Source: a bacterium (GTDB lineage Bacteria; Zhuqueibacterota; Zhuqueibacteria; Oceanimicrobiales; Oceanimicrobiaceae). Taken from it: a stretch of 58,204 nt of DNA. Of the stretch, positions 1,580 through 20,784 are shown piece by piece. Made by a program: the position numbers and the translations under genes. The DNA lies in NCBI GenBank assembly GCA_046757165.1, contig JBHHXT010000009.1, forward strand, positions 1 to 58,204, given 5' to 3'. The notes under the pieces are model-generated. The model was not told the origin of the DNA, ran no database searches, and worked only from the letters and a program-made list of their open reading frames with translations. The stretch's first letter is position 1. Each line of letters starts with the position of its first letter.

Positions 1580-1656
1580 GAAAGGCCACTTACCGCCTGA
1601 AGACTGAACTCCGAATTTTACCGTTTGAAGAATCCACGGTTCCGAAAACGCCCACG

Positions 1657-2430: not shown

Positions 2431-2565
2431 TGAGCACGCCGTTGCTTGGGATGGCCGGGATTAGCAAGGGGCGCCGGTGGCCAGTGAAATTTATGTGTCC
2501 CCGCTCGTCACAAAAGACTTTACAATAATCCGGAAAATGCTTTTATTGAGATAGGGAGATAGCAA

Positions 2566-3085
<520 letters not shown>

Positions 3086-3295
3086 AATAACAAATCGACG
3101 GCGGCCACTGACTGCGGCCCAACCATTTTTTCCGACTCCATGGGAATTTCGTCTCTCAAGTTTACATCCAAAGCATCCACAATGTCAAATATTTTTCCGC
3201 AAAGGTAACACTTACAGCTCTACGCAGTGCTGGTGCACGGCGACAGCACCCTTGTGCTTTAGTTAGCTCCTCTCGGAAGCGTGCCGACCAGCAAC

Positions 3296-4831
3296 TCACA
3301 TCCCGCTCCTCATCTCCATTGGCTGCGCAATCAACCAAAGGCTGAACACCGAGAACAGAACCATCAAACCAATCATGGGAATTTGACTTTTCATGGCCGC
3401 TCTGCGGGTTTTGAAAATGCGGCTGGCGTGCTGATGCGCGATCAGAATGCCAAAGACGTGACCAACGATGACCAGGCCGGCCTGCAGGTACCAGACCGTT
3501 TGTAACGACAGCAGCGGCTCGGGCTGCCAGGCGGCCGTGTCGAACAGATTCCACCCGTAACCAAAAGGATCGGAGACCAGCGCCACCAGCTTCTGACTCT
3601 CCATAAAAAAGTGCTCAATATTGTGCGCGATGTGGTAGAACAGAGCGATAGGAATCAGCGCATAAGCGTACTTGACAAACAAATGGCCGACTTTCTGGAG
3701 TCCCTCCCCGGCCAGAAATCCCGACACCCGGACGCAGAGCGCGTAGATGAGAACCGGCAAGAGCAGGCAAATCGCCATCCCGATCGAGAAGGCTGCGATT
3801 TGGCTGACGGACAGCTCGATTTGCAGGGTGTGCACGATGCGCTTCCAGGTCGGCGTCATGGTCAGGCCGTGGAAGGCCGTGAGGGCAAACAAGATGAGCG
3901 CCAGGTACGCTTCATCTTTGCGCGGTTTCGGCGTGTCCGCCAGGTCGGCGGCAAAGGGGCGCAGGTTGAAGGCGACGTTGTCATGGGGACAGGTGCGGAA
4001 ACACTCGGCGCACATGATGCAGTAGGTGTTGGTCGTCATGGTCTTCAGGCACTGGCCCGTCGGGCACGGATAACCTGTGCCATTGCCGGTCAAGCAATCG
4101 AGGGTTTTGCACCTGCGGCAAACGTCCGCATCTTTGCTGCGAATCTCGACCGGCGAAAACATGGCGTACAGGCCGCTCACCCGGCCGATCAGGCAGCCGT
4201 ACCGGCAAAAGGATTTCTTCTCGAACAGCAGGCCCGGGACAAAGACGAGACCGAACATGATGAGTCCCAGCGTGGCGGTCGCCTCCGGGCTGAGGGTGAT
4301 GTGGTAGCCCAGCTCCAGCCACGTCAGCAAGACGAACAGGAGGATCGCCAGGGTGATATTCCTGAGCCAGCGCGGCCACTTCCAGCCCAGGTTGATGCCC
4401 TCTTTCTGAACCTTGACGAAAGAGAGTCGCGTCAGCCAGTTGGTGAGCGCATCCCAGGGACAGGCGTAGCACCACATCTTGCCGAAAAACAGAATGACGA
4501 AAATAAGGCCGATCCACCAGATGTTCCAGGTGAGCGTGGGCGCGATGTTTTTGCCCGGGTGTTGGTGGCCGTAGAAGCCGGCGAAAAGAATGACCAGGAA
4601 CAGGAAGACCACAAAGAGCTGAAAAGCGGCCTGAATCCCTCTCGACTTAAAGAAGGCTTTGACGGCGCGGATTCGGCTCAGCTCGAACGTCTTGCCGGTT
4701 AGATCCCTGGTCTCTTTGCGCTGGAAGAATTCGAGCGCGGCGACCGAAAAGAGCATGACAAACACGATGGACGAATAGTACAACCACTCAGGGATCCCTG
4801 CCATGCTCATGCCACTCAAACTGAAGTTCAT
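3296..4831 (-). CDS. Polytopic 4Fe-4S membrane protein (NapH/CcoG/FesM-like)
   Basis: Many TM helices; WCYACP and FCRYGC motifs, CRRCKTLDC, CIMCAECFRTCP. Confidence 0.8.
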   Translation of the reverse strand: MNFSLSGMSMAGIPEWLYYSSIVFVMLFSVAALEFFQRKETRDLTGKTFELSRIRAVKAFFKSRGIQAAFQLFVVFLFLVILFAGFYGHQHPGKNIAPTLTWNIWWIGLIFVILFFGKMWCYACPWDALTNWLTRLSFVKVQKEGINLGWKWPRWLRNITLAILLFVLLTWLELGYHITLSPEATATLGLIMFGLVFVPGLLFEKKSFCRYGCLIGRVSGLYAMFSPVEIRSKDADVCRRCKTLDCLTGNGTGYPCPTGQCLKTMTTNTYCIMCAECFRTCPHDNVAFNLRPFAADLADTPKPRKDEAYLALILFALTAFHGLTMTPTWKRIVHTLQIELSVSQIAAFSIGMAICLLLPVLIYALCVRVSGFLAGEGLQKVGHLFVKYAYALIPIALFYHIAHNIEHFFMESQKLVALVSDPFGYGWNLFDTAAWQPEPLLSLQTVWYLQAGLVIVGHVFGILIAHQHASRIFKTRRAAMKSQIPMIGLMVLFSVFSLWLIAQPMEMRSGM

Positions 4832-4888
4832 AGGCTTTTCACATCCCGGACTGGTTTATTCCCGGCGGGCGGAAGGTGGGCAGAATAT

Positions 4889-5473
4889 TCAAGTTCTTGC
4901 CGGCAGCACTCTTATGGCATTCCCGGGTGCCGGACAGAAAAACTCACAGATGCCGCAGCCTGTGCATGCCTCTTCGCACACCCTCGGTTTGTTATTCTCC
5001 ATCACGATCGCCTGGCCTTTGCGCGGACAGCGGTCGTAGCAGTAGTCGCACCTGTCCGCCTGGCTGTTCCAGGCGAAGCATTTGTTTTGAATCACATGGG
5101 CTGTGCCCAACTTGATTTTCTCCACCGGCTGCAGGGCGCCTTCAGTACACGCCAGGATGCAGGGCGTGTCCGGGCACAAATAGCAGGGCGCTTTGTCGGG
5201 CACGAGGGTTGGCGTGTCCACCCCGGCGCCGCACCTGGCTCCGGCCCGGACCAGGGCGTTGTGCGGGCACGCCTCGATACAAAGGTCACAGCGGGTACAT
5301 GTTGCCAGAAAGGACAGCTCATCGATGGCGCCGGGCGGGCGTAAAAGCGGCACAACCATTTTGGCGGCACGCGCCTCGACCTGGTCGTCCAGGACCCGGG
5401 CGGTGAACTCGAGGAACGATCTCAAACCACCGCGCAGGAATTCGGAGCGGGTCATGGGTTCATTTTGCTTCAT
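4889..5473 (-). CDS. NapG/MauM/NapF-type polyferredoxin (four FeS motifs), probably cytoplasmic
   Basis: LRPPGA..E..F..CTRCDLCIEACP plus three more Cys clusters; degenerate twin-arginine motif (TRSEFL) with no hydrophobic signal. Confidence 0.8.
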   Translation of the reverse strand: MKQNEPMTRSEFLRGGLRSFLEFTARVLDDQVEARAAKMVVPLLRPPGAIDELSFLATCTRCDLCIEACPHNALVRAGARCGAGVDTPTLVPDKAPCYLCPDTPCILACTEGALQPVEKIKLGTAHVIQNKCFAWNSQADRCDYCYDRCPRKGQAIVMENNKPRVCEEACTGCGICEFFCPAPGNAIRVLPART

Positions 5474-5482
5474 ATCGATCTC

Positions 5483-6064
5483 TCAAACTTCATTTGCCGC
5501 TTCTGAAACCGCCCGTTGTCTTTTCTTCGTCAATCCGACGCTGACAAAAATCAACAGAAAAACGGCGCCGAAAAAGACCGGAATCAGATTGAAGTTTGTC
5601 TTTCCGATGACGACAGGAAAAGGTATTTTCTCGATAAAATCTGGTCGTGGCTCGAAGGTCACGTTGACGTAGTACTTTTCTGCGGCGGGAAATTCGGTGC
5701 TCATCTTGTACTCGTTGTATTCCGAGGTGACTTTTCGCGAAGGCAGGATTTGCTGCTCCCCCCCCAGGAAGGTCTCCTGACTGACCGACATCTCGATGGG
5801 GCGGGTGTACACCTCGCCGGTTTGCTTGTGCCTGATGTACGTCTTGATGCGCACGGTCTGCCCCGGCAGCGGATTGCCGGGAAAAATAGAAAAGGTCACG
5901 AGGTACCCTTCCGCATCTGCTTCGACAACCAGGGTCGGGATTTGCGGGTAATCTTTCGAGTACAGGTAGTGCGGCAGGCCCAGTTGATGGTGGGAAAACC
6001 CGTTGGTCGTCAGCAGCAACAAAAGCCAGGCCACGGCGATGATCTCGTTTATTGGTTTCATCAT
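5483..6064 (-). CDS. Hypothetical exported protein with C-terminal membrane anchor
   Basis: Signal peptide, HHQLGLPHY after predicted cleavage, beta-rich core, C-terminal TM helix; operonic position. Confidence 0.7.
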   Translation of the reverse strand: MMKPINEIIAVAWLLLLLTTNGFSHHQLGLPHYLYSKDYPQIPTLVVEADAEGYLVTFSIFPGNPLPGQTVRIKTYIRHKQTGEVYTRPIEMSVSQETFLGGEQQILPSRKVTSEYNEYKMSTEFPAAEKYYVNVTFEPRPDFIEKIPFPVVIGKTNFNLIPVFFGAVFLLIFVSVGLTKKRQRAVSEAANEV

Positions 6065-6163
6065 TTCTTACGCCCTTGTTGCGTTTCCCCGGAAATGCGA
6101 CCCACAAGGGGTCTGGGCTACAAAATCAAATTCCTGGAAAAAAGAACCCATAAAAAGCAACGA

Positions 6164-6304
6164 TTGAGCTTCGCTCAGTCATTTGTTGTCATTTGCCCCG
6201 CGGGGCGTCATTTGGTCCTTGCTTGCTCAATGACGCCCGCAGGGCAAATGACGGCGCGAAGCGCTAATGACTTTTTTCGCAGCGAAGTCTGCAAAACAAA
6301 TTAG
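6164..6304. repeat. ~140-bp palindromic MITE/REP-like element, copy 1
   Basis: Diverged inverted copy at 25151-25289; internal GTCATTTG/CAAATGAC repeats. Confidence 0.8.
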
Positions 6305-6309
6305 ACAGA

Positions 6310-7218
6310 CTACATGGGCATGGCCTCTATAGCTCCTGACTTCCCGTAAGTATAGCTGAGCGCCCCCGGCTGACAGACCGAGATACACAAGCCACACTGG
6401 TCACATTCGGCCGTAAGCTCGCGCGTCATCGGTTTCAAGTCATAGGGACAAACCGGCACACAGTCACCGCACTGGTCACAGAGGGGCTCATTTCGTCTGA
6501 TCCTCAGCAATCGAAACCGGGAAAGCGCGGCGTAAACCGCGCCGCCCGGGCAAACATAGCGGCACCACCACCGCCTCGACAGGATCAGCTCCACAAAGCA
6601 GATCACCGCGATGAGCAGCAAGCCGTGGCTGAAAAAGCCGTCGTAAATCTTGTACAAGATCTCCCGGCTGATGACCGCCGGCGGATAGATGAGCGCCAGG
6701 AGTGGCCTGCCACTGACGAACGCCGCCCCCAGGCCGAGCAGCAGAACAACTGTTTTGGTGGAGGGCTTGAACCTGACATCTCGCGTATTGTACCCCACCC
6801 GCTCCAGCAGCCTGCGCAGTTTGTCGTTGATTTCGAGCACCAGGTTCATCGGACAAATCCAGCCACAGTAGACCCGGCCCAGAACCAGCGTGACACTGAC
6901 CGGGATCACGGCAGAAAGCAGCATCGGCAGATAGAAATACAGGGCGATGGTGGTCGATTCCAGCACCGCCAGGGGATCGCTGATCTTGACACCCAGGATA
7001 TCGATGCTCCACACCGACCCTTTGACCTTGTGAGTGGCTTCGACGACACGGCTACGTTCCTCGCCGGTGAACACCCCATGTATCAAGGAGAGTTCTCGCG
7101 CCTGTGTGATGGCAGAGTCGTCTTTTTGCTCGATCTTGATGCCGTAATAGTTGACGAGCGGGATGAGAAGCAGAAGAAGGAAAACCCCAATTTGACCTGT
7201 CCGTCGTATGATTTGCAT
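6310..7218 (-). CDS. napH: NapH/MauN-type quinol dehydrogenase membrane subunit
   Basis: GRVYCGWICP and WCRYVCP motifs, two C-terminal CxxCxxCxxxC, TM helices; follows napG. Confidence 0.8.
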   Translation of the reverse strand: MQIIRRTGQIGVFLLLLLIPLVNYYGIKIEQKDDSAITQARELSLIHGVFTGEERSRVVEATHKVKGSVWSIDILGVKISDPLAVLESTTIALYFYLPMLLSAVIPVSVTLVLGRVYCGWICPMNLVLEINDKLRRLLERVGYNTRDVRFKPSTKTVVLLLGLGAAFVSGRPLLALIYPPAVISREILYKIYDGFFSHGLLLIAVICFVELILSRRWWCRYVCPGGAVYAALSRFRLLRIRRNEPLCDQCGDCVPVCPYDLKPMTRELTAECDQCGLCISVCQPGALSYTYGKSGAIEAMPM

Positions 7219-7346
7219 TCTGATTCCGTCCGACCTGTATCATGCTCATAAAGGTGCCCCGGCGTATGCCTACGCCGGGGTTTGTATAAGGAGGTAGAGC
7301 TAGAAACAGCCGATGTTGTTTGTTTCCCAAAATACGCGGTTGACCG

Positions 7347-7991
7347 TTAGGAAATAGCCTGCCGCCGACCTCTCCGGTACTCCTCCACGGGAATGATTTT
7401 GATCGCCTGCGGATAGTGGTAGCAGATTCGCTCACACAAGCCGCAGCCCACACAGTTTTCCTGTACCAGAATGGGCGTTTCCCACAAGCCGATTTTGAGC
7501 GCCTCGTCCTGCAGCGGGCAGGCGCGGTAGCAAACTCCGCAGACACGGTCGTTATAGGAATAGCAGAGATTGGTGTCCAGCACTGCCACGCCCATCGTCA
7601 CATGCTGGCGGATGGAAGCCAGATCGTCCGCGAGCGGCTGCAGCGCGCCGGAGGGGCAAACATTGTTGCACTTCATGCACAGGATGCACCCCTGTTCCCG
7701 CGGCACGATGTAAGGCGAGCCCGAGTTCTGCCCGGAGCCGATGCTGAAAAAGCGAATGCACTGGTTCGGACAAACCTCACCGCACAGGCCACAGCGGATG
7801 CACTTGCGCAGGAAATCGTTCTCCGCCAGCGCCCCAGGCGGTCGCAAGAATCTGAAGCGGCCACCGGTGGGAACCCATTTGAACAAAGAGAAGAAGATGA
7901 CGCCGACCCCCAGCAGCAAGTATTTCAGCGTCTCGCGGCGGCTTCTTCTGCTCTGAATGGTACGGGTGATTTTCTTCAACAGATCTTGCAT
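7347..7991 (-). CDS. napG: NapG/MauM-type periplasmic polyferredoxin
   Basis: Tat-like SRRETLK plus hydrophobic segment; LRPPGALAENDFLRKCIRCGLCGEVCP; four FeS motifs; ATG 7991 preferred. Confidence 0.8.
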   Translation of the reverse strand: MQDLLKKITRTIQSRRSRRETLKYLLLGVGVIFFSLFKWVPTGGRFRFLRPPGALAENDFLRKCIRCGLCGEVCPNQCIRFFSIGSGQNSGSPYIVPREQGCILCMKCNNVCPSGALQPLADDLASIRQHVTMGVAVLDTNLCYSYNDRVCGVCYRACPLQDEALKIGLWETPILVQENCVGCGLCERICYHYPQAIKIIPVEEYRRGRRQAIS

Positions 7992-8102
7992 GCTCAGCCT
8001 AACGACTTGCCACGGATTTACACGGCAAAACACGGATTTTTGAAATATAATGTCCCTAAGCTGGATAATTCATGAAATTCTCCCAGCCAGGGCCAGCACG
8101 TA

Positions 8103-8152
8103 AGGAGTGAGATGCTTTAGCATTTCATGCAACGCTAAAGCGTTGCACTCCT
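8103..8152. repeat. Inverted REP-like doublet between napA and napG
   Basis: AGGAGTG...CACTCCT enclosing two hairpins with CTTTAG/CTAAAG loops, like the family at 1021. Confidence 0.6.
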
Positions 8153-8191
8153 CTTTATTCCGTTAAGTTATTCCATCCAGGCGCAACAAGG

Positions 8192-10918
8192 TTACACCGT
8201 CAACTGAATCTTCTCAATCCGCGCGGCCAGCTTCTTGTAATCCGCCTGCCCGGAGACGGGATCGAAGGCGCGGTGTGACACGGCATTGACCAGCCAGCGG
8301 TTCTGCTTCGGGTCCGAGCTGTCGGCCACGGACAGATTCCAGGGCGAAAAGAGCTGACCTTCAGCGACCAGGTTGCGCGCTGGCCGGATCCTGCTGTTCA
8401 AGCCAATGGAAACCCGGGCCTCGTAGCTGCCACGGCGCGTGCTAATCCGCACCCAATCGCCATCTTGCAGGCCGTGACGCCTGGCGTCGTTTTCGTGCAT
8501 TTCGACATATTGTTCCATGACCAGCCTGCGTGTCGTGGCAGCACGCACGGTTTTGGCCGTATGGAAATGTTCATAGACCACGCCAAGATTGAGCCAGAAC
8601 GGAAACTTGTCCTTTGGCACCCGGTCGCCCGGAACTGTTGCGTACTCGAGGTCGGGCATGTCCGGCGTCAAGCCATAGTCCCTGACCTTCTTGATCAGCT
8701 CCATGTTGTTGATGATCAAGAAATTCTTGTCCACGCCAACTTTGCGCAAATCTGCCATGACTTCCGGATATTTTGAATAATCCTGGTGGCACAGTTTGAA
8801 GTTGGCTTTGCCACTGGGGGTGCGGAAGGCGCCGTACGGTTTATCTTTCCACCCCTTTTCCTGCCCCAGGTACCGTCTCGAGGTACCGCCGGCGAGTGCG
8901 ATTTCCGCGGTTGGCGCCGGCCACTGAACGCCACGCAGCTCACGCAAGATTTGATACGGCTCCACTCCCTCGAGCTCGGCAGCTTTCACCACGCCAGAAA
9001 AATCAGCATCGCTGCCTTCGCTGGCCCGGGCGATTTCCACGAAGATTTCCTGCACATCATAGAACCCTTTTTCGTTCTTTCTGTATGGAAAAAGTTTCTT
9101 CCCGTCCATGCCGAGCAAATTGGCGATGTGAATCCCTTTGTCGATGACGATATCGAGGTCCGGCTTGCACCCCGGCGGCGGCTCGGCAGCCTTGTCCGTG
9201 ACATACATTCTGCGCTCCGATTGCACATAGACGCCGCCACATTCTCCCCAGGTGGCGGCCGGGAAGATGACGTCCGCGTAGAGATTGTTCGGCGCATGCC
9301 GGTAGATCTCCTGCACCACCACAAACATATTGTCGAGCGCGGGCCGCACCAGCGTCTCTGTTTCCGGCAAGTCGATGTGTGTGGCGTAGATCAAGAACAT
9401 ACCGCGGACTTTTCTGGGGTCATCATCCGGGAGCAGGCCGCGTTCCATCATACCGACCGCATAGCCCGGGTTGGTGGAATCTGCCACTTGTTTTAGCTTT
9501 TCAACCGGCACATTCCAGAGTCGAGAGAAAAGCTCTATTCCTTTCTCGTTGTACTTGCCGCCGGCTTTCAACCCCTGGTTGAACGGCAGTCTGCCGGTCA
9601 AGCCGCCGGTCAAGCGCTCTCCCATGGCGTTCGGCTGCCCGGTTTGCGAGTGGGGCCCGCAGCCGGGCCGGCCGATGTTGCCGGTCAGCAGGTGCAGATT
9701 GATGATGCTGATGACATTGTGCTGGCCATGGATGCTCTGGTTGTAACCGATGCCCCACCAGGTCAGCACCCCGCCGGTGCCGCGCTTGTTGCCTTTTCGC
9801 GTGGCTTTAGCCCATTCCCGCGCGATTCTTTGTACAAACGAAACAGGCAAGCCGGTCACGGCGCGCGTTTTACGGGGATCATATTTCGCTCTGACCCCGT
9901 CGACGTACTCTTTCCAGCCGGTAGTGTGCTTCTTCATGAACTCCCACGCAATGACGTCCTGATGTTCGGTGAGCAGGACGTAGGCGATGTTGTTGAGCAA
10001 GGTAATGTCGGCGTTGGGTTTGATCTGGGCATGATAGGAGTTGTCCGGGCTCACGTCTTCAAATCCCTGTACCGTCCCCGTGCGGCGTGGGTCCACCACC
10101 AGGGTTGGAATGCCGGCACTTTTTTTGTAGTCCGCCACCCGCCAGAAGATAATGGGATGCGCCTCACGCGGATTGTGGCCCCAGAAGGAGATGAAATCAC
10201 ACATCTCGGCGTCTTCGTAGCATGTGGGCGGAGCGTCTGAGCCGAGCGTTTTGAAATAGGCGGTGACGGCGCTGGTCATGCACATTCTCGCGTTGGCTTC
10301 CATGGTGTTGGAGCCGACCACGGCCTTCATGAATTTGTTTTCGAGATACTGCCCCTCGAGGGTCAACTGCCCGGAGCCGTAGAGGCCGATACAGTTGCCG
10401 CCATATTTTTTCACCAGGTGCGCGATTTTGTGCGCCGTCATCTCGCTCGCTTCGTCGTAGGAGACCACCTGCCACAGGTCGTCTTCGAATCCGCCTTTGG
10501 TTTTGGAGGTGAATTCCAGGTTGCCATGACCGGATTTTTTCCATTCAGCCCAGGTGTCCTTTCGCACCAGCACGTCGGTCAGCCGGTCGATATAGATGGG
10601 TTCGTTTGCGGTCAACCCTTTGATGCATTGCATGCCTTTGTTGGTGGGGTGGTTTTTGTCCGGCACCATGCCGACGATCTTGCCATTCTCGACCTGAATC
10701 ATCGTGCCGCAGCCGACGCCGCAGTAGGGACAGGCGGAAAGAAAGTTGGTTGTTTGCGTCGGTGCGGTCGCTGCCGCTGCAACCTTGATCTCCGACTCCC
10801 TGCCTTTGCAGCCAACGACGTTAGCGGCTGTGATAGCGGACATGGAGGCGGTGGCTTGCAAGAATTTCCGTCTGGTCAGGGTCCAGAGCCTGGTGGGTTT
10901 TGGGGGAGTTGATGCCAT
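8192..10918 (-). CDS. napA: Molybdopterin nitrate reductase catalytic subunit (NapA/Nas family), Tat-exported, probable lipoprotein
   Basis: TRRKFLQ Tat motif; VVGC lipobox; CPYCGVGC...C FeS motif; GSGQ; NARMCMTSA Mo-ligand Cys; TGQPNAMG; AGGAGG RBS; upstream of napGH. Confidence 0.8.
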   Translation of the reverse strand: MASTPPKPTRLWTLTRRKFLQATASMSAITAANVVGCKGRESEIKVAAAATAPTQTTNFLSACPYCGVGCGTMIQVENGKIVGMVPDKNHPTNKGMQCIKGLTANEPIYIDRLTDVLVRKDTWAEWKKSGHGNLEFTSKTKGGFEDDLWQVVSYDEASEMTAHKIAHLVKKYGGNCIGLYGSGQLTLEGQYLENKFMKAVVGSNTMEANARMCMTSAVTAYFKTLGSDAPPTCYEDAEMCDFISFWGHNPREAHPIIFWRVADYKKSAGIPTLVVDPRRTGTVQGFEDVSPDNSYHAQIKPNADITLLNNIAYVLLTEHQDVIAWEFMKKHTTGWKEYVDGVRAKYDPRKTRAVTGLPVSFVQRIAREWAKATRKGNKRGTGGVLTWWGIGYNQSIHGQHNVISIINLHLLTGNIGRPGCGPHSQTGQPNAMGERLTGGLTGRLPFNQGLKAGGKYNEKGIELFSRLWNVPVEKLKQVADSTNPGYAVGMMERGLLPDDDPRKVRGMFLIYATHIDLPETETLVRPALDNMFVVVQEIYRHAPNNLYADVIFPAATWGECGGVYVQSERRMYVTDKAAEPPPGCKPDLDIVIDKGIHIANLLGMDGKKLFPYRKNEKGFYDVQEIFVEIARASEGSDADFSGVVKAAELEGVEPYQILRELRGVQWPAPTAEIALAGGTSRRYLGQEKGWKDKPYGAFRTPSGKANFKLCHQDYSKYPEVMADLRKVGVDKNFLIINNMELIKKVRDYGLTPDMPDLEYATVPGDRVPKDKFPFWLNLGVVYEHFHTAKTVRAATTRRLVMEQYVEMHENDARRHGLQDGDWVRISTRRGSYEARVSIGLNSRIRPARNLVAEGQLFSPWNLSVADSSDPKQNRWLVNAVSHRAFDPVSGQADYKKLAARIEKIQLTV

Positions 10919-10934
10919 GATTGTCCTCCTGTTG

Positions 10935-10984
10935 CCATCCCACCGCAGTGCGGTCGCGTTTGCAGGGAACTGCGGTGGGAATGG
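10935..10984 (-). promoter_or_regulatory. Strong stem-loop in the napA leader
   Basis: 12-bp perfect stem TCCCACCGCAGT/ACTGCGGTGGGA just upstream of the RBS. Confidence 0.5.
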
Positions 10985-11057
10985 ATGATCGATAGTATTA
11001 CACTACATCTCATCCTTTGCATTTTTTGGCAAAAGATGAATCACAATAAACAATTAA

Positions 11058-13100
11058 TTAATGTTCAAACGCGATGACTTGTTTTTGCCATGTACGGATG
11101 TATGCGACAATATCATTGATCTGCTCTGCGTCGAGCTCCTCATAGCCCTGGGCCCCTTTGGCCCAGGAGCGCATGGCTGTGCCTGATCTGCCCAGGGCAA
11201 TGGTGGCCTGCAGAAAGCCATCGGTGGCGGCGTTGAGGAATTCCTGGTTGTTGAGAGCCGGCCCGTGTTTGCCTTCGCCGTTGACGCCGTGGCAGCCGGC
11301 GCACATGCTCTCGTACAGAACCTTGCCTCGTGTCGGGGTACCAGGCGTGATGTTGGTATAAATGGCCTCTCTTTTTACATCCTCCTGACTCCGCATATAC
11401 GCAACGATATCTTTCAGTTCACGGTCGGCGAGCTGCTCCATGCCTTGAAACCTTTTGGACCAGCTCCGCATCGCGCTCCGACTTCTGCCGCGCGAAATCG
11501 AGCGCAGGATAAATTCATCAGAGGCGGCGCTCAGAAAATCCTTGTTCAAAATAGCGGGACCGACCGAACCCTGGCCATATCGACCGTGACAGCCGACGCA
11601 CATCGAATTGAAGAGCATCCGTCCGTTTTCAACATTGCCAATGATTCTTCTGGCGGAAAGTTGTCTGGGCGCGCTGTTTTGCCAACTGCGCATGAACGCG
11701 ATCAAGTTGGCCACCTCGCGCGCTGAGAGCTGCGACCAGGAGGGCATGGCGGTATTCCTGCGTCCCTCCACGATGGTCTTGTACAGAAACATATCCGAAG
11801 CGATGGTGAGCAAATCCTGATTGTTGAGAGACGGGCCGATGCCGCCCTCGCCGTTGGCGCCATGACAGATTCCGCAGCGAGAACGGAACAGTTTGCGACC
11901 GGTTTCGGCATCTCCGCCGGCCGCGTTCACCCGGGCAAACGTGGGCGGCTTCGGCTTCCACCGCCGGATCAGATCCACCAGGGCGGTGATTTCAGCGCCG
12001 GATAAGCCGCCGTGGGCCGCCGCCCATGAGGACATGTTCCGGCCGCTGCGGCCATTTGCAATGGTGAACTCGATCATCTCGTCGGAGGCCACAGCCAGAA
12101 AATCCGGGTTGTTCAAAGCCGGCACGCTGGCCTGGAAAACCCGGTAGTCTTTGCCCGCTCCCTTTTTGCCGTGGCAAACCGCGCACATGACCGCATAAGC
12201 TTCCGCTGGCGCGAAAGGCTTGCGCCGGCCTTTGAATTCTGCGATTGGGTCGAGTGAATAGTAACTCGAGGCGAACTCTGGCTGATATAACGCCATCGTG
12301 AAGGTGATGAGCGCATCCATTTCATCCGCGCTCAACTCGATTGGCGGCATCTCGGAGCTGCCGGAGACTTTCTGCGGGTTGAGAAAATGCTCCAGCAGCC
12401 AGTTCTGCACGGTGTGTTCATCTTCGATGTTCTTGAAGCTATACTCGTGTTTGGTCTTGCTACCGTGGTCGGTCAGATCCGGCCCGACACTGCCGCCGAC
12501 GTCGCGCACGCTGTGACACCCAAAGCAGCCCTCCCGGTAGAAAATCGCTCTGCCCCGAATCAAGACCTCTGCCCCGGCAAGGGTTTGCTGCCGGTCGAAT
12601 ACCGCCAGGTGGCATTTGCCGCAGGAGGATTGGACGTAGTCGAGCGGCAGCACCGGATAGTCCCAGTGCACATCTTCGTCGCGTGCAAAGACGTTCTTGA
12701 TGGCCAGGGCCCGGTCCTGGCCGCCGTGACAGATGCTGCAGCCGAATTTGTCGATCGGGTGGTTTTGAACATAATCTCCCGGGTGACGCGCATGCGGTGG
12801 CACCTGGTCGGCCATTCTGGGATCCTCGATGCCGTTGTGGCAGGTGATGCACCGGTCGACGCGGTTGAAATCGTCCAGAATGAGCTGCTTGATTTCAATT
12901 GGGAAGTCCTCAGCCATGGCGCGCTCTTTGTCGGTTTCGGCTTTGGAGACAAGAATTTCCTTGTACTCCTGCTGATGATTTTTCCACTCGCGCAAGAAGT
13001 TTTCCTCAATGGCTGCCATGCCGAAAAACACGATGCAGACCAGGCTGCCGGCGATGGTCAGTTTTTTGTAGAGTCGGTCATAGTGGTGCTCGAGGTTCAA
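11058..13100 (-). CDS. Membrane-anchored octaheme cytochrome c
   Basis: Eight CxxCH (CITCH, CSICH, CGKCH, CFGCH, CAVCH, CGICH, CVGCH, CAGCH); N-terminal TM helix; TTG start with AAGGGAG RBS. Confidence 0.92.
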   Translation of the reverse strand: MNLEHHYDRLYKKLTIAGSLVCIVFFGMAAIEENFLREWKNHQQEYKEILVSKAETDKERAMAEDFPIEIKQLILDDFNRVDRCITCHNGIEDPRMADQVPPHARHPGDYVQNHPIDKFGCSICHGGQDRALAIKNVFARDEDVHWDYPVLPLDYVQSSCGKCHLAVFDRQQTLAGAEVLIRGRAIFYREGCFGCHSVRDVGGSVGPDLTDHGSKTKHEYSFKNIEDEHTVQNWLLEHFLNPQKVSGSSEMPPIELSADEMDALITFTMALYQPEFASSYYSLDPIAEFKGRRKPFAPAEAYAVMCAVCHGKKGAGKDYRVFQASVPALNNPDFLAVASDEMIEFTIANGRSGRNMSSWAAAHGGLSGAEITALVDLIRRWKPKPPTFARVNAAGGDAETGRKLFRSRCGICHGANGEGGIGPSLNNQDLLTIASDMFLYKTIVEGRRNTAMPSWSQLSAREVANLIAFMRSWQNSAPRQLSARRIIGNVENGRMLFNSMCVGCHGRYGQGSVGPAILNKDFLSAASDEFILRSISRGRSRSAMRSWSKRFQGMEQLADRELKDIVAYMRSQEDVKREAIYTNITPGTPTRGKVLYESMCAGCHGVNGEGKHGPALNNQEFLNAATDGFLQATIALGRSGTAMRSWAKGAQGYEELDAEQINDIVAYIRTWQKQVIAFEH

Positions 13101-13213
13101 TGCGGTTCTCCCTTGATTTCTTAAGGTTCCTATTCATTCTGCGGCCCGGGCCGTATTCCACACCGATTGCAACGATTCAGGTGATAGACTGTAGACTGTT
13201 AGACTGTTAGGCG

Positions 13214-13316
13214 CTGAGTTCTAAAGTCTTGACGTTTTTTGGCAAGACTTTAGAACTCAGGGCTGCTGATGACGCTATTATGTAAGTTACAGCGACAATT
13301 TTTTTCTAAACTTTTC
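13214..13316. repeat. 103-bp dispersed hairpin-containing element, copy 2
   Basis: Near-identical to 819-921. Confidence 0.85.
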
Positions 13317-13665
13317 AAAAAACCTGTTTGGTTCCGGCTCGTCCGGCTTAAGCTTGAGCAATACTCTAATCAAAGCGCCTAAAATTATTTTGTCTCTACA
13401 ATTCATAGTCGCCTTCACTTTCTCTTGCACATCCTTCGATCCCGAAGCTCAAACGCCGGGATTCGATGGAACCGAAACCGCAACTCTTCTCATCTTCCTA
13501 CGGCCCAAACGTCTACAGCCTATCGGTCTGAATAGCTACCACGGATTTCTCAAGTCACATCAAGATATTCCTCCGTGTGGTTTTTTGATCCGCGTGGACC
13601 AAACATCGACAAAGTTTTGTCAACAAGGCGCTGTAAGCGCCTCAGATCATCCATGACCCGGGGAC

Positions 13666-15228
13666 TCAATGCACCGGCCATTGCGATGGGGACCAGTAGA
13701 AATCCCAGTTTGGTCCTCTAAAATAGGTGCCCATCACGGTTAAAATCAAAAAGCCGACAATGAAACAGGTAAACAAAGCAATGGCTGCCATGCGAGTCGA
13801 CCCGGAGAATCTCAGGGTGTGCAACGACCACCAGGCAAAGATGAGCACGATAAAAGAGCCCGGGTTGACGAACACGATAACGATCTGCGGAATGTGCGGG
13901 AACCAGTTGCGCAGCCAGCCAAACTCGACGGTCAAGGCCAACAAACCAATCAGGAAGAGCGACGAAAAAATCGCCGATTTGATGGCCACGCTCTTGCCCG
14001 GACCTCCCGAAAACCAGACACCGAAATCCCGATCTTCTTTGTCGAGAAACGGGATGAGCATCAAGCCAACCAGCACAATGGTCGGGATGCCGATGCCGCC
14101 CATGAACGCCGAATAGGAAACAAGCTCCTGCAGGCCGAGGAAATACCACGGTGCCTTGGCCGGATTTTCAGGAATGGCAGGATTCGCGATCTCCTTCAGC
14201 GGTGCATCAAAGAAGTAGGCCAGAACCGTCATGACCGCCATCGTCAGCATGAAGACGGCGACCTCGGCCCAAACGCCGGTGGGCCAGGTCATGATAGTGT
14301 TATCAGGACCGCCGTTGAGTTGCGGCGACTTGCCTTTGACCAACGCCATCAACCCATAGGTCTTGTTGGGGTTGAGATTGAACTCGCCCTTTTGATGGGT
14401 GCCCGGAACCGTTTCACCCCCTTCCTGCGCGCGGATGATTTCGTCGGCATTGTCCGGCCGCGACAGCCCGCCATCTTTGCGAATCCGCCAGAAATGCACC
14501 CCGACCACCGTGATGAGCGCGATGGGCAGGACCATGACGTGCAGCAGGTAGAATCGCGTCAATGCTTCCTGTCCGACCGTGTTGCCGCCAATTAAGAGCT
14601 GCTTCGAGAAAGCCCCGACGTCAAAATACTCCGTCAGTCCCAGAGCGTCGGTCAGCTCTCGCGGCGAGGCGGCGATATTGGCGCCGATGGTGACGGCCCA
14701 ATAAGCGAGCTGGTCCCACGGCAGCAGATAACCGGTGTAGCTCAGCATCAGCGTCATGACCAGAAGCGCCATGCCGATGACCCAGTTGAAGTTGCGACCG
14801 CGCTTGTAGGAGCCGGTGTAAAATACGCGCACCATGTGCAGCAGCACGGCGAACACCATCCCGTGGGCTGCCCAGCGATGGATATTGCGCATGTACTTGC
14901 CCGTGGCCACAACAAAACTGATGTCCCGCACGTTGTCGTAGGCCAATCCCGTCGTTGGGTTGTAGTAGACCATCAGCAGGATGCCCGTCACGCACAGGAT
15001 GAGAAAAAGAAAGAAGGATATCAGCCCGAGCCCCAGGGTGTACCAGGGCTTCAGACTATATTTGTGGATGCGCGCCGATTGAATGTGCAAAAAGAAATTC
15101 TGAAAGATAGCCTGAGACTTCTCCCGGTCGGAGCTCGGCGGCCATTCATATCGTCGAACCGACTTCTTGACTGAGGTTTTGATGTCTTTGACATTGTCAA
15201 TAAATGTCTTGAGACCCTTTTCATCCAT
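13666..15228 (-). CDS. Cytochrome b of a Rieske/cytb complex (cyt b6 and subunit IV fused)
   Basis: RNIHRWAAH...LHMVRVF, TGYLLPWDQ, FYLLH-x14-HFW, NPAKAPWYFLGLQE; start MDEKG at 15228. Confidence 0.92.
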   Translation of the reverse strand: MDEKGLKTFIDNVKDIKTSVKKSVRRYEWPPSSDREKSQAIFQNFFLHIQSARIHKYSLKPWYTLGLGLISFFLFLILCVTGILLMVYYNPTTGLAYDNVRDISFVVATGKYMRNIHRWAAHGMVFAVLLHMVRVFYTGSYKRGRNFNWVIGMALLVMTLMLSYTGYLLPWDQLAYWAVTIGANIAASPRELTDALGLTEYFDVGAFSKQLLIGGNTVGQEALTRFYLLHVMVLPIALITVVGVHFWRIRKDGGLSRPDNADEIIRAQEGGETVPGTHQKGEFNLNPNKTYGLMALVKGKSPQLNGGPDNTIMTWPTGVWAEVAVFMLTMAVMTVLAYFFDAPLKEIANPAIPENPAKAPWYFLGLQELVSYSAFMGGIGIPTIVLVGLMLIPFLDKEDRDFGVWFSGGPGKSVAIKSAIFSSLFLIGLLALTVEFGWLRNWFPHIPQIVIVFVNPGSFIVLIFAWWSLHTLRFSGSTRMAAIALFTCFIVGFLILTVMGTYFRGPNWDFYWSPSQWPVH

Positions 15229-15260
15229 TGGGGGGGCTCCTGTTTTGCTTTTAGAGCGAC

Positions 15261-15734
15261 TCAAACCACGTAAATGTCGTCTGGCTTGACCTTCTTGTTC
15301 AGATCGATTGTCAATTGGCCATCCGGACTTTGACCTATCTTCAGCCATTCCAGTGCCTTTGGCGCCGGGCCGCCTGTCACGTTGCCCTGTTGGTCGAATT
15401 TGGACCCATGGCATGGGCAAGAGAAGCCCCAATCCATTTTCGAAACAATACACCCTAAGTGCGTGCACACCGCTGACAAAGCCCGGAAGCCCGTCTGGTC
15501 CCGCAGCACAAAGACGTTTTTTTCCGGGATGGCTTTGTAAGTATTGACCCCAAAGTCAGAGGGGTAGCCAATCTTGAACAGACTCGGCGGCTCGTTGAGA
15601 ACTTTGGGCAGCGGCAGTTGAATGGTTCCGATAAAAGCCATCGAGCCGGCGCCGATCAGCGAGCCGACAGCAACCTTACCGAGAAAATCTCTGCGACTCA
15701 TCTCGCCGTTTTCGTTTTGTCTTTGATCGTTCAT
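15261..15734 (-). CDS. Rieske 2Fe-2S subunit
   Basis: SRRDFL Tat anchor; CTHLGC and CPCHGS; ATGA overlap with upstream gene; GGAGG RBS. Confidence 0.95.
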
Positions 15735-17605
15735 GCGAACGCCTCCGTAAAATTGAAAGCTTCCATCGTGATGGCACCAACCGGACAGCGCTGGGCACAA
15801 AGTCCGCAACGGATGCAAATTGTTTCGTCTTTGATGATGGCCCCGCCCTCTGAAAGCGGCATGTCGTCGTAACGGGTTTGCAGAAGCTGCTCGATGTCGC
15901 TATTTCCAGCCAGGGCCGCGACCGGGACCAGCTTTAAGCACCCCTCCGGGCAGACATCCGCACAGCCGCCACAGAGAATGCACTTGTCGCCGTCGAAGAT
16001 GGTGTTGACCGAACAGTCAAAACAGCGGCTTCCCTGGCGCATGGCTTGCTCGGTCGTGAATCCCCTTTCGACGGTCAGGTTCATCGCTTGCTTGCGCTCC
16101 TCCGCCGGGAGAACCGGCACGCCCTCACGTCGAATCGACTCGAACCCGCTCTCCTTCGAGTAGCTGATAATCCGACGATGTGAGGCTCGTGTTTTGTCGA
16201 GAATCGGCTTCTTTTTCAAGTAGACATAGATTCTGCGCGCAGCTCGTTTCCCGCTGGCGATGGCATCGATCATCAAGGCCGGCCCGGTGGCAATGTCGCC
16301 GGCAGCAAACACATCTGCCGCCCGGGTTTGATTCAAAGACGCGTCCAGTTGCAACTGACCGCGCTCATTGAGCGCGATCTCTTTTGAATCGATAAACGAC
16401 AGGTCGCTCGCCTGGCCGATGGACAGGAGAACATTGTCCGCCTCCATGTCGATGGTTTGGCGTTCGTCGAATGTCGGCGCAAACTGCTTCTTTTCGTTGA
16501 ACACAGAGAGACAGCGCACAAAGCGCACGCCGCAAGCGCGCCCGGATTCGTCAACCAGAATCTCTTTCGGACCCCACGAGTTGTGCCGGACAACGCCTTC
16601 CTCCTCCCCCTCCTCGATTTCGCCGATCTCGGCGGGCATTTCGTGCAGGGACTCCAGGCAGAATAGATGCACTTCTTTGACACCCTTCTGGCGCAGAGCC
16701 GTGCGCGAGACGTCATATTCAGTTTGGCGAATCAGCGTGCGCGCGACGTCGTACGCCACATTGCCCCCGCCGATGACCACCAGCCTCTGTCCGAGCTCAA
16801 CTTCTTCTGCGAGCGCAACGTCGCGCAGAAACTCCACCCCTCCGTAGACTCCCGGAGCATCGATGTTCGGAATCGGGATTTTGCGCGATTTCTTGGCCCC
16901 CACCGCGATCAGGACAGCGGCGTGCTTAGCACGCAGCTCCTCCAGGGTGATATCACGTCCCACCTGCATATTGCACAGGATCTCGGTCCCCAGCGCTTTG
17001 ATGACCTCGACCTCAGCCTTGATCAGGTCGCGCGGCAGACGGTACTCGGGCACCCCCAGGTAAAGCATGCCAGCAGGCACGGGCTCCATTTCATAAATCA
17101 CTGGCTTGATGCCCATGAGACAGAGATCGTGTGCGGCCGCCAGACCCGCAGGCCCAGAGCCAACGATACCGACGGTGGGGGCGTCTTCCGAAAGCGGAGG
17201 GGGCGCAAAACGGGAAAGGAAGTTTTCAAATCGTTCCAGGCCCGAACAATCCCGGTTTGCCGCGGACAAATATTTCTTCAGAGCCTCGATGGGGCCTTTG
17301 TCAAACCGGGACGATTCAACGCCAAAACGCTCGGTGACAAAGCGCTTCAGGGCACGAATGGAGACGGCTGCGTCCAGGTCCAACCGCCGGCAGGCGGCTT
17401 CACACGGCGCCCCGCAAATCCGGCCGCAGATGGAGGCGAGCGGATTGGGGGCACGGGCGATCAGGTAGGCTTTTTCATAATCTCCTGCCGCAATGGCTCG
17501 CACATAACCTCTCGCGTCGGTGTGAACCGGGCACGCATTTTGACATTTTATCTGGCGCTTCCAGTAGTCTAAGTCCGGGATTTCAACAGAAAGTTTGGGA
17601 GTCAT
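15731..17605 (-). CDS. FAD/FeS NAD(P)H oxidoreductase (GltD/NfnB/DsrL family) with C-terminal ferredoxin domain
   Basis: [40 protein letters not shown], two CxxCxxCxxxCP; ATG 17605 preferred over GTG 17647. Confidence 0.9.
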
Positions 17606-18043
17606 GCGACATCTTTTGATCTTAAACGTGCAGTCCTTTGGCGCCACCTTTCCAGGGATGCAACTGTGAGTAGCGGAGCTTTCCGTACCGGGTACTTCTT
17701 TGCATCATACAACACAGTCTCTGACTCTGTTTTGGTGTGCTGGCCCGCACCCCGGGCCTCAAATACACGGTCAGAGACGGTGTAGGATCGGTTCTTGATC
17801 ATACGATGCCAACTCTTGTAACGAAGTACTGGAAACGCCGGATTAACTTATTCTGTTTGATTGATTTGGCTAGATGGGGCGGTCCGAAAGGCTACGAGAA
17901 TACGTACGCGACACCTTTATGTCGCTACAATCTAAATCACGACATGAATGCGTGCTCCGCAATCTTACCGGTTTTTTGGGACAACCCCACTTGGAACCTA
18001 TTCTCTTCTTCAAACAAAGTGAATCAAACACTGAACCGAGGAC

Positions 18044-18481
18044 TCAGACAGTTGTGACTGGGAATTCCGCGCCAATCTGTCGTTCGAGCTGAGCGATACT
18101 CTGGGTCTTGAGCATGGCGATGATATCCTCCTTGATGTGCGTCCAACGACTGTGCAACGGACACGGGAACTGGTCGTTACAGCCGGGGAAACCCAAAAAG
18201 CAATCGTCCAGAAACGCCGGGCCATCAATCGCCAGGATGACTTCGTAGGGTGTAATCTCTTCCGCGCTTTTTCCAAGGATGAACCCCCCTGTCTTCCCGC
18301 GCTGCGAAATGATAAGCCCGCTGCGTACGAGCATCTGCAATACCTTACCCAGAAAGTGTGGCGGGATGTCAAGGGCTGTTGCGATCTGACGCTGGAAAGA
18401 GGGTCTCGCTCCAGGCTGGGATGCCAAATAGAGAAGCGCCTGCAGCGCGTACTTACATCCTTTTGTTAGAAAGCCATCCAT
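18044..18481 (-). CDS. Rrf2-family transcriptional regulator, probably FeS-binding
   Basis: YALQAL...IPPHFLGKVLQ...RGKTGGF.L; three Cys (CFLGFPGCNDQFPC). Confidence 0.93.
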   Translation of the reverse strand: MDGFLTKGCKYALQALLYLASQPGARPSFQRQIATALDIPPHFLGKVLQMLVRSGLIISQRGKTGGFILGKSAEEITPYEVILAIDGPAFLDDCFLGFPGCNDQFPCPLHSRWTHIKEDIIAMLKTQSIAQLERQIGAEFPVTTV

Positions 18482-18516
18482 TGAATTCCGATAATCAGAG
18501 TTTCTTGTCCTTTTTC

Positions 18517-18545
18517 AGGATACAAATAATCTCCCGCTTTGTCAA
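18517..18545 (-). promoter_or_regulatory. Sigma70-type promoter of the rrf2 gene
   Basis: Minus strand TTGACA-17 nt-TATCCT, ~35 nt upstream of the ATG. Confidence 0.6.
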
Positions 18546-18574
18546 GCCGTTTTTGGTATTGTTTCAAAAGTTTT

Positions 18575-19309
18575 TCAAAAAGAACGGGAGGGATAAACAG
18601 CCTCTCGAGCAGGGAGAGCTCCCGCCCTCAAGTCAATCGAATACTCGAGAAGCTCATGCCCACTTGCCTGATATTTTTTCTCAAAGGCTGAAATCGGTTC
18701 CTGAACCGAAAGACGCTGAAGTGAGCCCTTTCTGCCTGTGGCGATCTCTGCTGCACGGGCGAATTCTTGTACATAGATTTTCCAGTTGCTGCGCACCTGC
18801 AGGATGCCCCCAAGCGCCAGCAGCTCCTTGAACACAGGATGTCCGTGCCAACGCCGGCGCACATGCCGCTTCTTGGGCCAGGGGTTGGGGTAGAGCAGAA
18901 AATGACGCTGTAGCCGCCACCCTGCCTGCTGCGCCAACCGCCAGATGTCGACCAGGTCTGCGCGCAGAAAGAGAAGATTGCTGCCGGGCTCGGCCTTGTC
19001 TCTTGCTTTTTGAATTCGGATCGACGACTTTTCCAGGCCAACCACAAGAGCCTCCCGAAAGCATTGGGCAAGAAAAACCGTGCTTTCCCCGGTGCCACAC
19101 CCTGAATCGAAAATGAGCGGCGCAGCACAGTTGGCGACTTCCTTAGAAAGCGCATAGAAGGTTTCCAGGCTAACTTGCTTGAACGGCCTGCGGTAATCGT
19201 GCTCCAGATGTTTCTTGACAATGGACTCCAGGTCTGGATGAATATCCGGTTGGTTGCTGGAGACTGTTGGGGAATTTCCTGACATGCGCCTGTTTCGCCC
19301 GGCAAGCAT
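18575..19309 (-). CDS. TrmB-like SAM-dependent methyltransferase
   Basis: DSGCGTG motif I; YPNPWPKKRH motif. Confidence 0.8.
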   Translation of the reverse strand: MLAGRNRRMSGNSPTVSSNQPDIHPDLESIVKKHLEHDYRRPFKQVSLETFYALSKEVANCAAPLIFDSGCGTGESTVFLAQCFREALVVGLEKSSIRIQKARDKAEPGSNLLFLRADLVDIWRLAQQAGWRLQRHFLLYPNPWPKKRHVRRRWHGHPVFKELLALGGILQVRSNWKIYVQEFARAAEIATGRKGSLQRLSVQEPISAFEKKYQASGHELLEYSIDLRAGALPAREAVYPSRSF

Positions 19310-19310
19310 C

Positions 19311-20531: not shown

Positions 20532-20725
20532 GAGAAGATTTTCCTTTGATCGTTGCCTGGACGCCAGAGAAAAAATAGCGACAATTTGTTGTCGATATTG
20601 GGCCCACACGGAGAACTTTTGCTCAAGAAATCCGCGTGGGTTTTTGATCCGTTCCGAATTGTATTCCTAAAATGACTCTCGGGGCTGGACATCTGGCCCA
20701 GCTTTTTCAAATTTGGAGCTCAGCA

Positions 20726-20781
20726 TTTCGAATTTCCGGTTGTTCAATCCTGCGCCTTCTGCGGGGCTTGTCCGGCTCAGG
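20726..20781. repeat. Dispersed ATTTCGAATTTCCGG...CTTGTCCGGCT element
   Basis: Related copies at ~786-815, ~13331-13350 and ~46760-46818. Confidence 0.7.
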
Positions 20782-20784
20782 GTC

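Follow-up and report, generated by a model that had tools for sequence, protein, structure and literature searches.

Cytochrome bc complexes that carry a pyridine-nucleotide oxidoreductase have been described from the anammox bacterium Kuenenia stuttgartiensis, and periplasmic nitrate reductases (Nap) fed by a bc complex from Campylobacter jejuni and Wolinella succinogenes. Here we describe an operon in which a Rieske/cytochrome b complex of the first kind is encoded together with an octahaem cytochrome c and a molybdoenzyme of the Nap/Nas group. The operon lies on positions 1–58,204 of contig JBHHXT010000009.1 (assembly GCA_046757165.1), a stretch of 58,204 nucleotides hereafter called the window, which is contig C9 of a 6.1-Mb genome of the Oceanimicrobiaceae, phylum Zhuqueibacterota (G000, completeness 99.98%). 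Its gene order recurs in family relatives, in a Spirochaetia record and in Poribacteria records and is therefore not due to chance; the system is a real, conserved new combination of known kinds of parts.

The closest described counterparts of the membrane complex are those of K. stuttgartiensis Kustd1480–1485 and Kuste4569–4574. In the parts of the preprint available to us (bioRxiv 10.1101/2025.06.25.661457), these share with the window an NAD(P) oxidoreductase, a Rieske protein, a b6-like cytochrome b, a subunit IV with five transmembrane helices and a multihaem cytochrome c and, judged by motif position and spacing, probably also an extra N-side histidine with an RK motif; the two Rieske proteins were measured at +303 and +335 mV, and quinol-driven NAD(P)+ reduction by the anammox complexes is proposed there and unproven. 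The window differs in that its cytochrome b and subunit IV are fused, the cysteine for haem cN is missing and there is no HAO-like subunit. Its host is not an anammox bacterium, and the operon names a high-potential acceptor, the molybdoenzyme, whereas according to the preprint no such acceptor had been put forward for Kustd1480–1485.

On the nitrate side, the available part of a study of C. jejuni mutants (PMC6195509) demonstrates an energy-conserving, bc-fed Nap running on menaquinol. The path in C. jejuni and W. succinogenes resembles that proposed here, from menaquinol through a bc complex to a periplasmic nitrate reductase with no NapC and with NapGH retained; the Qcr-dependent system has an H+/2e− of 2, and in C. 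jejuni nitrate is not reduced through NapGH when Qcr is missing, a maturation role being suggested for NapGH. Both species use the general respiratory QcrABC with canonical NapAB and no flavoprotein, whereas the window encodes a bc complex of its own for the molybdoenzyme, in the same operon and fused to the putative donor cytochrome. The nap cluster of Caldithrix abyssi, according to the portion of its description available (PMC5317091), comprises napMAGH, Rieske/cytochrome b genes and eHao, with no napB or napC, and the Rieske/cytochrome b is proposed to be its electrogenic donor. Our genome holds a locus of that type on another contig (C156); the Caldithrix type differs from the window operon in having a canonical NapA, NapM/NapD, a Rieske protein without the potential-raising serine, a PEWY-type cytochrome b and no flavoprotein. 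The original prediction for this stretch did not know the combination as a described system; the principle of an energy-conserving, bc-fed Nap is known, and this particular combination was not found in the literature. Nor did we find a description of the molybdoenzyme lineage or of its fusion to a flavoprotein–bc module, including in the available parts of PMC10732223 and PMC10100899, although prior mention in subscription papers is possible.

Gene content of the operon

The operon comprises 11 open reading frames (ORFs), all on the minus strand. The ORFs, with family calls from Pfam and NCBIfam profile searches, bear out the gene order, strand, coordinates and most of the labels originally assigned from the sequence. 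In the order of transcription, the features are as follows.

18044..18481, minus strand: Rrf2-family regulator (PF02082, 102 bits)
15731..17605, minus strand: Fe-S/FAD pyridine-nucleotide oxidoreductase, predicted cytoplasmic, with GltD/NfnB/DsrL architecture and a C-terminal 2x[4Fe-4S] domain
15261..15734, minus strand: Rieske [2Fe-2S] protein of the twin-arginine translocation (Tat) type, its Ser/Phe pair as in Kuenenia Kustd1480
13666..15228, minus strand: cytochrome b6 fused to subunit IV (five predicted transmembrane helices)
11058..13100, minus strand: membrane-anchored octahaem cytochrome c with exactly eight CxxCH motifs
11067..11366, minus strand: last class-I haem domain of the octahaem protein (residues 579–678), predicted docking domain for the molybdoenzyme
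8192..10918, minus strand: Tat-exported Mo/W-bis-pyranopterin guanine dinucleotide enzyme from a third, so far nameless Nap/Nas-group lineage
7347..7991, minus strand: NapG/MauM-like 4x[4Fe-4S] protein with RR leader and hydrophobic anchor
6310..7218, minus strand: NapH/MauN-like membrane Fe-S protein
5483..6064, minus strand: exported, C-terminally anchored 193-residue protein with a conserved N-terminal HH motif
4889..5473, minus strand: second NapG/NapF-like polyferredoxin, without hydrophobic leader and probably cytoplasmic
3296..4831, minus strand: NapH/NosR-like Fe-S membrane protein with about nine transmembrane helices

The flavoprotein ORF was called from 17647, and its start in relatives corresponds to Met15; its stop codon overlaps the Rieske start codon. 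Residue numbers of cytochrome b follow the 600-residue ORF, for which Met81 is the likely start. Genome-wide profile searches gave no match to napB, napC or napD on the window contig, as first noted from the sequence, and no match to napB anywhere in the genome. The only NapD of the genome lies on C156, in an operon of its own with a canonical NapA and a NapM-like cytochrome. A NapC-type query had no match in the genome; one PF03264 match on contig C232 (27 bits against a cut-off of 24) was rejected as NapC, being a 569-residue five-haem protein in an unrelated context.

A molybdoenzyme lineage beside NapA and NasA

The molybdoenzyme bears a twin-arginine motif at residues 16–17, nearly invariant across its family, and an N-terminal [4Fe-4S] motif (Cys63, Cys66, Cys70 and Cys98, then Lys100) as in NapA. 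It also has Cys213-Met214, Gln428 and Arg435, and the Cys-Met pair, Gln and Arg are kept in 48 of 48 family members; this set is common to Nap and Nas enzymes and is not that of formate dehydrogenases (FDH). We take these residues to be the ligand cysteine followed by Met (His in FDH), and the Gln and Arg of the GQP..R segment. The original label of Tat-exported nitrate reductase, NapA, holds for the Tat leader and fails for the NapA identity, since the curated NapA profiles, with cut-offs of 904 and 931 bits, give the enzyme 316 and 296 bits, roughly one third of what they require. NasA/NasC/NarB-type profiles score 279 and 230 bits against cut-offs of 1000 and 1100, and identity to the canonical NapA on C156 is 29%.

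In a 23-row IQ-TREE tree, made as a quick search and including eight NapA, five Nas and seven new-lineage rows, four groups were recovered: FDH (support 100), NasA (97), NapA (100) and the new lineage (100), the last on a long stem. NapA, NasA and the new lineage join against FDH with a support of 100, and the order among the three is not settled by this tree. The AlphaFold model of the enzyme has a predicted local distance difference test score (pLDDT) of 87, and its top match by both sequence and fold is the monomeric NapA of Desulfovibrio desulfuricans (PDB IDs: 2v45/2jio; E 3.5e-69, query-normalised TM score 0.75), with FDHs close behind in the fold search (TM score 0.73). The D. desulfuricans enzyme shares the Cys-Met ligand pair, Gln, Arg and Fe-S motif, but has a structural identity of 26%, belongs to a separate clade and has a different partner cytochrome.

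Canonical NapA was rejected as an identity on the profile scores, the separate clade, Ile390 (see below) and the lack of NapB, NapM and NapD at the locus; the assimilatory, cytoplasmic NasA was rejected on the Tat leader, the position outside the Nas clade and the profile scores. Judged by its sequence, the enzyme belongs to a separate lineage beside NapA and NasA. It probably works like a Nap-type reductase though not a member of NapA, with nitrate as the probable substrate.

The family is large. Identity is 58% or higher throughout its best 120 homologues, its presence was confirmed on no fewer than 523 metagenome stretches, and cultured carriers include Shewanella benthica (WP_193630839.1) and Thiohalobacter sp. 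IOR34. The window enzyme is 87% identical to that in a record labelled ‘uncultured Calditrichaceae bacterium’. Among the top 25 neighbour families, the commonest specific neighbour is moaA, at 5 of the 125 neighbours scanned (of 168 collected).

Linkage of the bc genes to the molybdoenzyme

We compared 97 molybdoenzyme loci, 15 of them genomic, 80 metagenomic (the best 80 of the 523 stretches) and two taken from family relatives. No bc genes are present in 87 of them, and in most of these non-bc members a class-I dihaem cytochrome is encoded as a protein of its own next to the enzyme. Cytochrome b occurs in the other 10 (8 of the 51 loci with at least 5 kb upstream), of which seven have a strong flavoprotein match, one a fragment, and two lie on contigs that end earlier. 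In a FastTree tree the bc-linked molybdoenzymes form one branch of 10 rows with a support of 100, L038 and L041 having been left out for their cut genes; the sole row in this branch without bc genes, L033, is a Poribacteria contig cut off upstream. Its rows come from this family, from Spirochaetia and Poribacteria, and from three metagenome contigs that bear no label. Across the phylum, 5 of 167 genomes carry the molybdoenzyme, all from one family and all behind cytochrome b/octahaem genes; this set overlaps the 97 loci, so the two counts are not additive. The gene-neighbourhood check called for by the original prediction therefore returned linkage across phyla within one clade.

The cytochrome b partners of this branch fall into two separate groups. 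On thin sampling, this hints at a single exchange of the cassette for another that was likewise of the flavoprotein type. NapG and NapH are found in nearly all complete loci, and an Rrf2 gene lies upstream also in L021 and L038, and not in L022. Window-type cytochrome b–octahaem cassettes with no molybdoenzyme following were seen at L147 (genome G048), L151 (G117) and L152 (G104). G019 has a second cytochrome b/octahaem pair (L153, contig C542; 81% and 71% identical) on a contig that ends before the next gene.

The octahaem cytochrome as probable donor to the molybdoenzyme

The octahaem protein consists of a three-haem N-terminal part and five single-haem domains. The region of haems 1–4 is common to other bc cassettes, while haems 5–8 lie in repeated class-I domains that have their homologue in the dihaem cytochrome which accompanies the molybdoenzyme family as a free protein. 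When the 76 free dihaem cytochromes found beside non-bc members were compared with the 46,894 ORFs of the genome, every one had its best match in domains 5–8 of the window octahaem (median 106 bits, against 51 for the next-best ORF); for the genome's other bc cytochromes, the similarity is mainly to the N-terminal part of the window protein. In distant fusions conservation is highest in domain 8, at 60–62% against mostly 32–47% for the other domains. The NapC-type pentahaem cytochrome (PF03264) occurs in 38 of the 97 loci and in none of the 10 bc loci, although related loci are not independent.

We modelled a complex of molybdoenzyme residues 59–904 with octahaem domain 8, including ligands. 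The interface score (ipSAE) was 0.74, whereas the best of three controls scored 0.00; of 157 solved complexes, 116 attain this mark, as do 2 of 215 mismatched pairs, though for these alignments and ligands the two counts are only a rough guide. The runs share at least 92% of contacts with a partner pLDDT of at least 83, and the modelled edge of haem 8 rests on the Fe-S domain of the enzyme. Interface residues on the enzyme side are 77% conserved, against 62% overall. Domain fusion and docking model together support the donor role first proposed for the octahaem protein, which is likely to be a direct electron donor to the molybdoenzyme.

Free partner cytochromes with three, four or six tandem class-I domains occur in L096, L118, L129, L056 and L057; the number of repeats in the donor thus differs between family members. 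An octahaem protein of the HAO/OTR/eHao type was rejected, as the window protein has no match to PF13447 and the genome's only match lies on C156.

The flavoprotein–Rieske–cytochrome b module

The best PDB matches of the Rieske protein are 9rk4 and 9rk3, the two Kuenenia proteins, and it has the potential-raising serine plus phenylalanine, as in Kustd1480. This serine is present in 16 of 16 flavoprotein-linked Rieske proteins and in 2 of 7 others. Cytochrome b has the four b-haem histidines, a variant Qo motif (APWY) and an extra histidine, His128, which is conserved and may ligate the b haem predicted at the dimer interface; the extra histidine is present in 16 of 16 flavoprotein-linked cytochromes and in 3 of 8 others. 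As strict markers of the flavoprotein, both residues are weakened by L147, L152 and a further case on contig C34. The position of the haem cN-binding cysteine is occupied by Gly146, and its absence was rejected as a sign of a flavoprotein route because cytochromes b without a flavoprotein lack it as well.

The flavoprotein shares its N-terminal Fe-S, FAD and NAD domains with DsrL and NfnB, and its C-terminal ferredoxin domain with DsrL. It has no NADP-binding YRR motif, which the available part of PMC7596348 takes to mark NADP use in DsrL/NfnB, so NAD(H) is likelier than NADP(H) and the enzyme is probably NAD(H)-specific. The earlier description as an NAD(P) flavoprotein is thus kept for the pyridine-nucleotide oxidoreductase and narrowed for the nucleotide. 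Unlike DsrL and NfnB, it has no DsrAB or NfnA partner in the operon; lacking also the equivalents of Cys39, Cys42 and Glu117, it was rejected as a flavin-bifurcating enzyme of the NfnB type.

By standard potentials, 0.25 eV remains overall when the electrons of menaquinol are divided between nitrate and NAD+, which makes NAD+ reduction feasible but tight. The genome encodes NuoF and MenB; MqnC of the futalosine route to menaquinone was not found in five genomes, MenB being found instead.

Proposed electron path and alternatives

Drawing on the observed gene linkage, phylogeny, domain fusion and motifs and on the modelled docking, we propose that the operon encodes a hard-wired menaquinol:oxyanion oxidoreductase, with nitrate as the most likely oxyanion, that passes its second electron to NAD+; taken whole, we give this proposal slightly less than an even chance. 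It would be built from two modules, a Rieske/cytochrome b complex of the anammox type, to which an NAD(H) flavoprotein is added on the cytoplasmic side, and a widespread Nap/Nas-group molybdoenzyme with NapGH-like helpers. In most relatives the second module would work with its free class-I dihaem cytochrome, often with a NapC-type quinol dehydrogenase; in the bc clade the bc complex would take the place of NapC, with the dihaem cytochrome fused into the bc octahaem. Menaquinol would be split at the Qo site. One electron would pass from the Rieske protein through haems 1–8 and the [4Fe-4S] cluster to Mo and nitrate, and the other would cross the membrane through the b haems and a dimer haem ligated by His128; it would then reach the flavoprotein and, most likely, NAD+, the NADH being re-oxidisable by complex I. 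The NapG/H-like, HH-motif and Fe-S membrane proteins would most likely serve in maturation or reductive activation. Of the separate parts, the bc complex is probably the donor to the molybdoenzyme, and NAD+ reduction is somewhat favoured as the direction of the flavoprotein.

Several observations weigh against this reading. Ile390 is found in 48 of 48 family members where all NapA-type rows compared have Met, a position we take to be that of the second NapA active-site methionine, Met308, and His397 and Glu434 are further residues specific to the clade. No member of the family has a measured substrate, so for this sister lineage nitrate is something we infer; just 2 of the 125 scanned neighbours match NarX/NarQ, and the same genome has a canonical NapA with its own Rieske/cytochrome b, so that a second nitrate reductase needs a reason. 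On the cytochrome side, the modelled interface residues are not conserved (31% against 39% overall). NapGH are also present and could oxidise quinol, and G048, G104 and G117 carry the same type of cytochrome b and octahaem tail without such a molybdoenzyme. His128 was placed opposite the Kuenenia histidine by motif position and spacing alone (202 against 204 residues to Arg), not by direct alignment. In L147 and L152 the Rieske flank is complete and there is no adjacent flavoprotein, and the serine and histidine are still kept; these marks therefore track the cytochrome b clade, not the flavoprotein, and are no independent proof of it. Finally, a Rieske protein near +320 mV leaves about 0.14 eV at the bifurcating step for one transmembrane charge.

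The tightness of that step is also an argument for an alternative with the same wiring and substrate, in which NADH feeds electrons in through the flavoprotein to a negative-side quinone site, much as has been suggested for FNR at the b6f complex. The result would be an NADH:nitrate oxidoreductase complete in itself, with about 2 charges moved for every 2 electrons. Ample NADH would be expected in the host, which is probably a heterotroph, and the related DsrL enzymes run both ways in vitro, as described in the available part of PMC7596348. We consider this alternative unlikely: the genome has NuoF, so that the route would bypass proton pumping, an argument that the Kuenenia authors also make in the accessible part of their preprint (bioRxiv 10.1101/2025.06.25.661457), and a high-potential-type Rieske protein in a menaquinone organism would be unexpected for a plain Q cycle. 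The missing haem cN cysteine points the same way, though it is shared by cytochromes b without a flavoprotein.

The substrate may instead be another high-potential oxyanion or an N- or S-oxide (iodate, (per)chlorate, selenate or other), with the wiring as proposed and nitrate left to napDA(M). The long stem and the fixed active-site changes would fit this, as would the coexistence of the molybdoenzyme with canonical NapA in G000, G012 and G014, the sister cassette that serves an idr-like cluster (below) and the reduction of chlorate and perchlorate by C. jejuni NapA (PMC12769810). Set against these, both sister lineages are nitrate reductases, chlorite dismutase had no match in any of the five carrier genomes, the molybdoenzyme module contains no peroxidase genes, and G013, with no canonical NapA or NarG match, keeps its eHao-type octahaem gene; we counted the dismutase result and the G013 gene for nitrate and judge a different substrate quite unlikely.

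A very improbable reading is that the two modules are co-regulated but separate, NapGH oxidising quinol non-conservingly for the molybdoenzyme while the bc cassette serves other acceptors. It would account for the near-constant presence of NapG and NapH, for the similar bc/octahaem cassettes without the enzyme in three genomes and for the genome's four flavoprotein–Rieske–cytochrome b cassettes (the window and contigs C328, C45 and C313), but here the cytochrome partner of the enzyme is present solely within the bc octahaem, the docking model joins the two, the bc loci lack NapC-type genes, and C. jejuni NapGH fail without Qcr, as given in the available part of PMC6195509. Most improbable of all is an oxidative direction, in which the molybdoenzyme oxidises a donor such as nitrite and proton-motive force drives reverse electron transfer to NAD+: a sister cassette (L148) is joined to a NarG/Nxr-like enzyme and some records that contain family members are labelled as lithotrophs (Mariprofundus, Nitrospinaceae, Thiohalobacter), but non-bc members travel with NapC-type and NapGH quinol-oxidising genes, and Nap/Nas enzymes are reductases.

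Sister cassettes and a possible general module

The closest paralogous cassette (L149, G013 contig C21) is joined to two di-haem peroxidase-like genes and to AioB/AioA-like genes that pass curated cut-offs. The same gene order is found in L150 (G004 contig C52) and L154 (G014 contig C42), and contigs C329, C328 and C267 of G000 are collinear with L149. The idr-like cluster encodes an 889-residue AioA/IdrA-like protein, and the cassette joined to it is flavoprotein–Rieske–cytochrome b–pentahaem. Its gene arrangement corresponds to idrABP1P2, which marks iodate reductase, and the idr cluster as described in the available part of that preprint (bioRxiv 10.1101/2020.12.28.424624) has no dedicated quinol oxidoreductase; cluster and cassette together therefore resemble an iodate reductase equipped with a dedicated bc complex. 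In L148 (G128 contig C131, 548–12116), rrf2–flavoprotein–Rieske–cytochrome b–heptahaem genes are joined to a 1150-residue Tat type-II molybdoenzyme, NarG/NxrA-like, and its beta subunit. The recurrence of the cassette with apparent reductases of strong oxidants fits the NAD+-reducing model, while the Nxr-like partner could also run oxidatively.

A wider view, which we put forward as doubtful, is that ordinary heterotrophs use the flavoprotein–Rieske/cytochrome b cassette generally as a module for splitting menaquinol, in which strong oxidants in the periplasm would draw one electron by way of interchangeable molybdoenzymes (the third-lineage nitrate reductase, IdrAB-like or NarG/Nxr-like) and the other would go to NAD+, complex I re-oxidising the NADH. 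If so, as many as about 6 charges could be moved by the loop for each net menaquinol, against 2 for the Q cycle; this is close to the ceiling from standard potentials, 5.6–6.7. Energy would then be conserved in respiration in a way that is new, and the anammox proposal would gain its first tractable test. The window operon offers a candidate acceptor enzyme and a putative physical wire, where the published account, in its available parts, lacks the driving acceptor for one anammox complex, and it provides a concrete test case for whether such complexes make NADH during nitrate respiration. Curated NapA profiles do not detect the molybdoenzyme family. Should its members reduce nitrate, surveys based on marker genes count too little nitrate respiration in marine and sediment lineages, or give it the wrong name.

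Other loci of the genome and carrier genomes

The C156 locus (483–7007) encodes a Rieske protein without the serine, cytochrome b, an eHao-type octahaem protein, NapD, canonical NapA and a NapM-like tetrahaem protein. G013 has the Rieske–cytochrome b–octahaem part of such an operon without nap genes (L137), and G014 has three different Nap-type loci (L138 on C18, L040 on C76 and L036 on C65), each with its own Rieske/cytochrome b. Ahead of each of the cassettes on C45 (about 13800–23000) and C313 lie genes for a homologue of the window's Fe-S membrane protein and for a dihaem protein of about 317 residues. NrfA and NarG were not found in any of the five carrier genomes, nor was NirK, and clade II NosZ had no match over the cut-off.

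Minor features of the window

The 193-residue protein had been called His-rich, which its four histidines (2.1%) do not support, the conserved N-terminal HH motif being all that remains of that label. It has no Pfam or NCBIfam match; a weak YtkA-like lead comes from PF13115, found on 18% of one atlas cluster. The third napG-like gene that follows napH in relatives is absent from the window, with no remnant. Four larger intergenic gaps are filled by repeats that match 35–86 contigs per gap, with no genes inside. A promoter and terminator scan was at chance level and uninformative (10 sites found against 7.1 expected).

18517..18545, minus strand: sigma-70-like site upstream of rrf2, at chance level
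13207..13545: dispersed genomic repeats filling the gap between the cytochrome b and octahaem genes, with matches on other contigs
About 17707–17830, 8055–8176 and 6164–6304: similar dispersed repeats in three further gaps

The 3' half of the Fe-S membrane protein gene is part of a direct duplication of 781 bp, 99.7% identical (1650–2430 and 3283–4063), which is either recent or an assembly artefact. The copies flank a DUF4160–DUF2442 gene pair (2566–3085, plus strand), which we take to be a toxin–antitoxin-like pairing. A 153-bp tandem repeat of about 2.5 copies at 1116–1518 derives from a dispersed element also present at positions 2–35. The molybdenum cofactor synthesis gene moeA lies at 27120–28367, about 9 kb upstream of the operon, among housekeeping genes.

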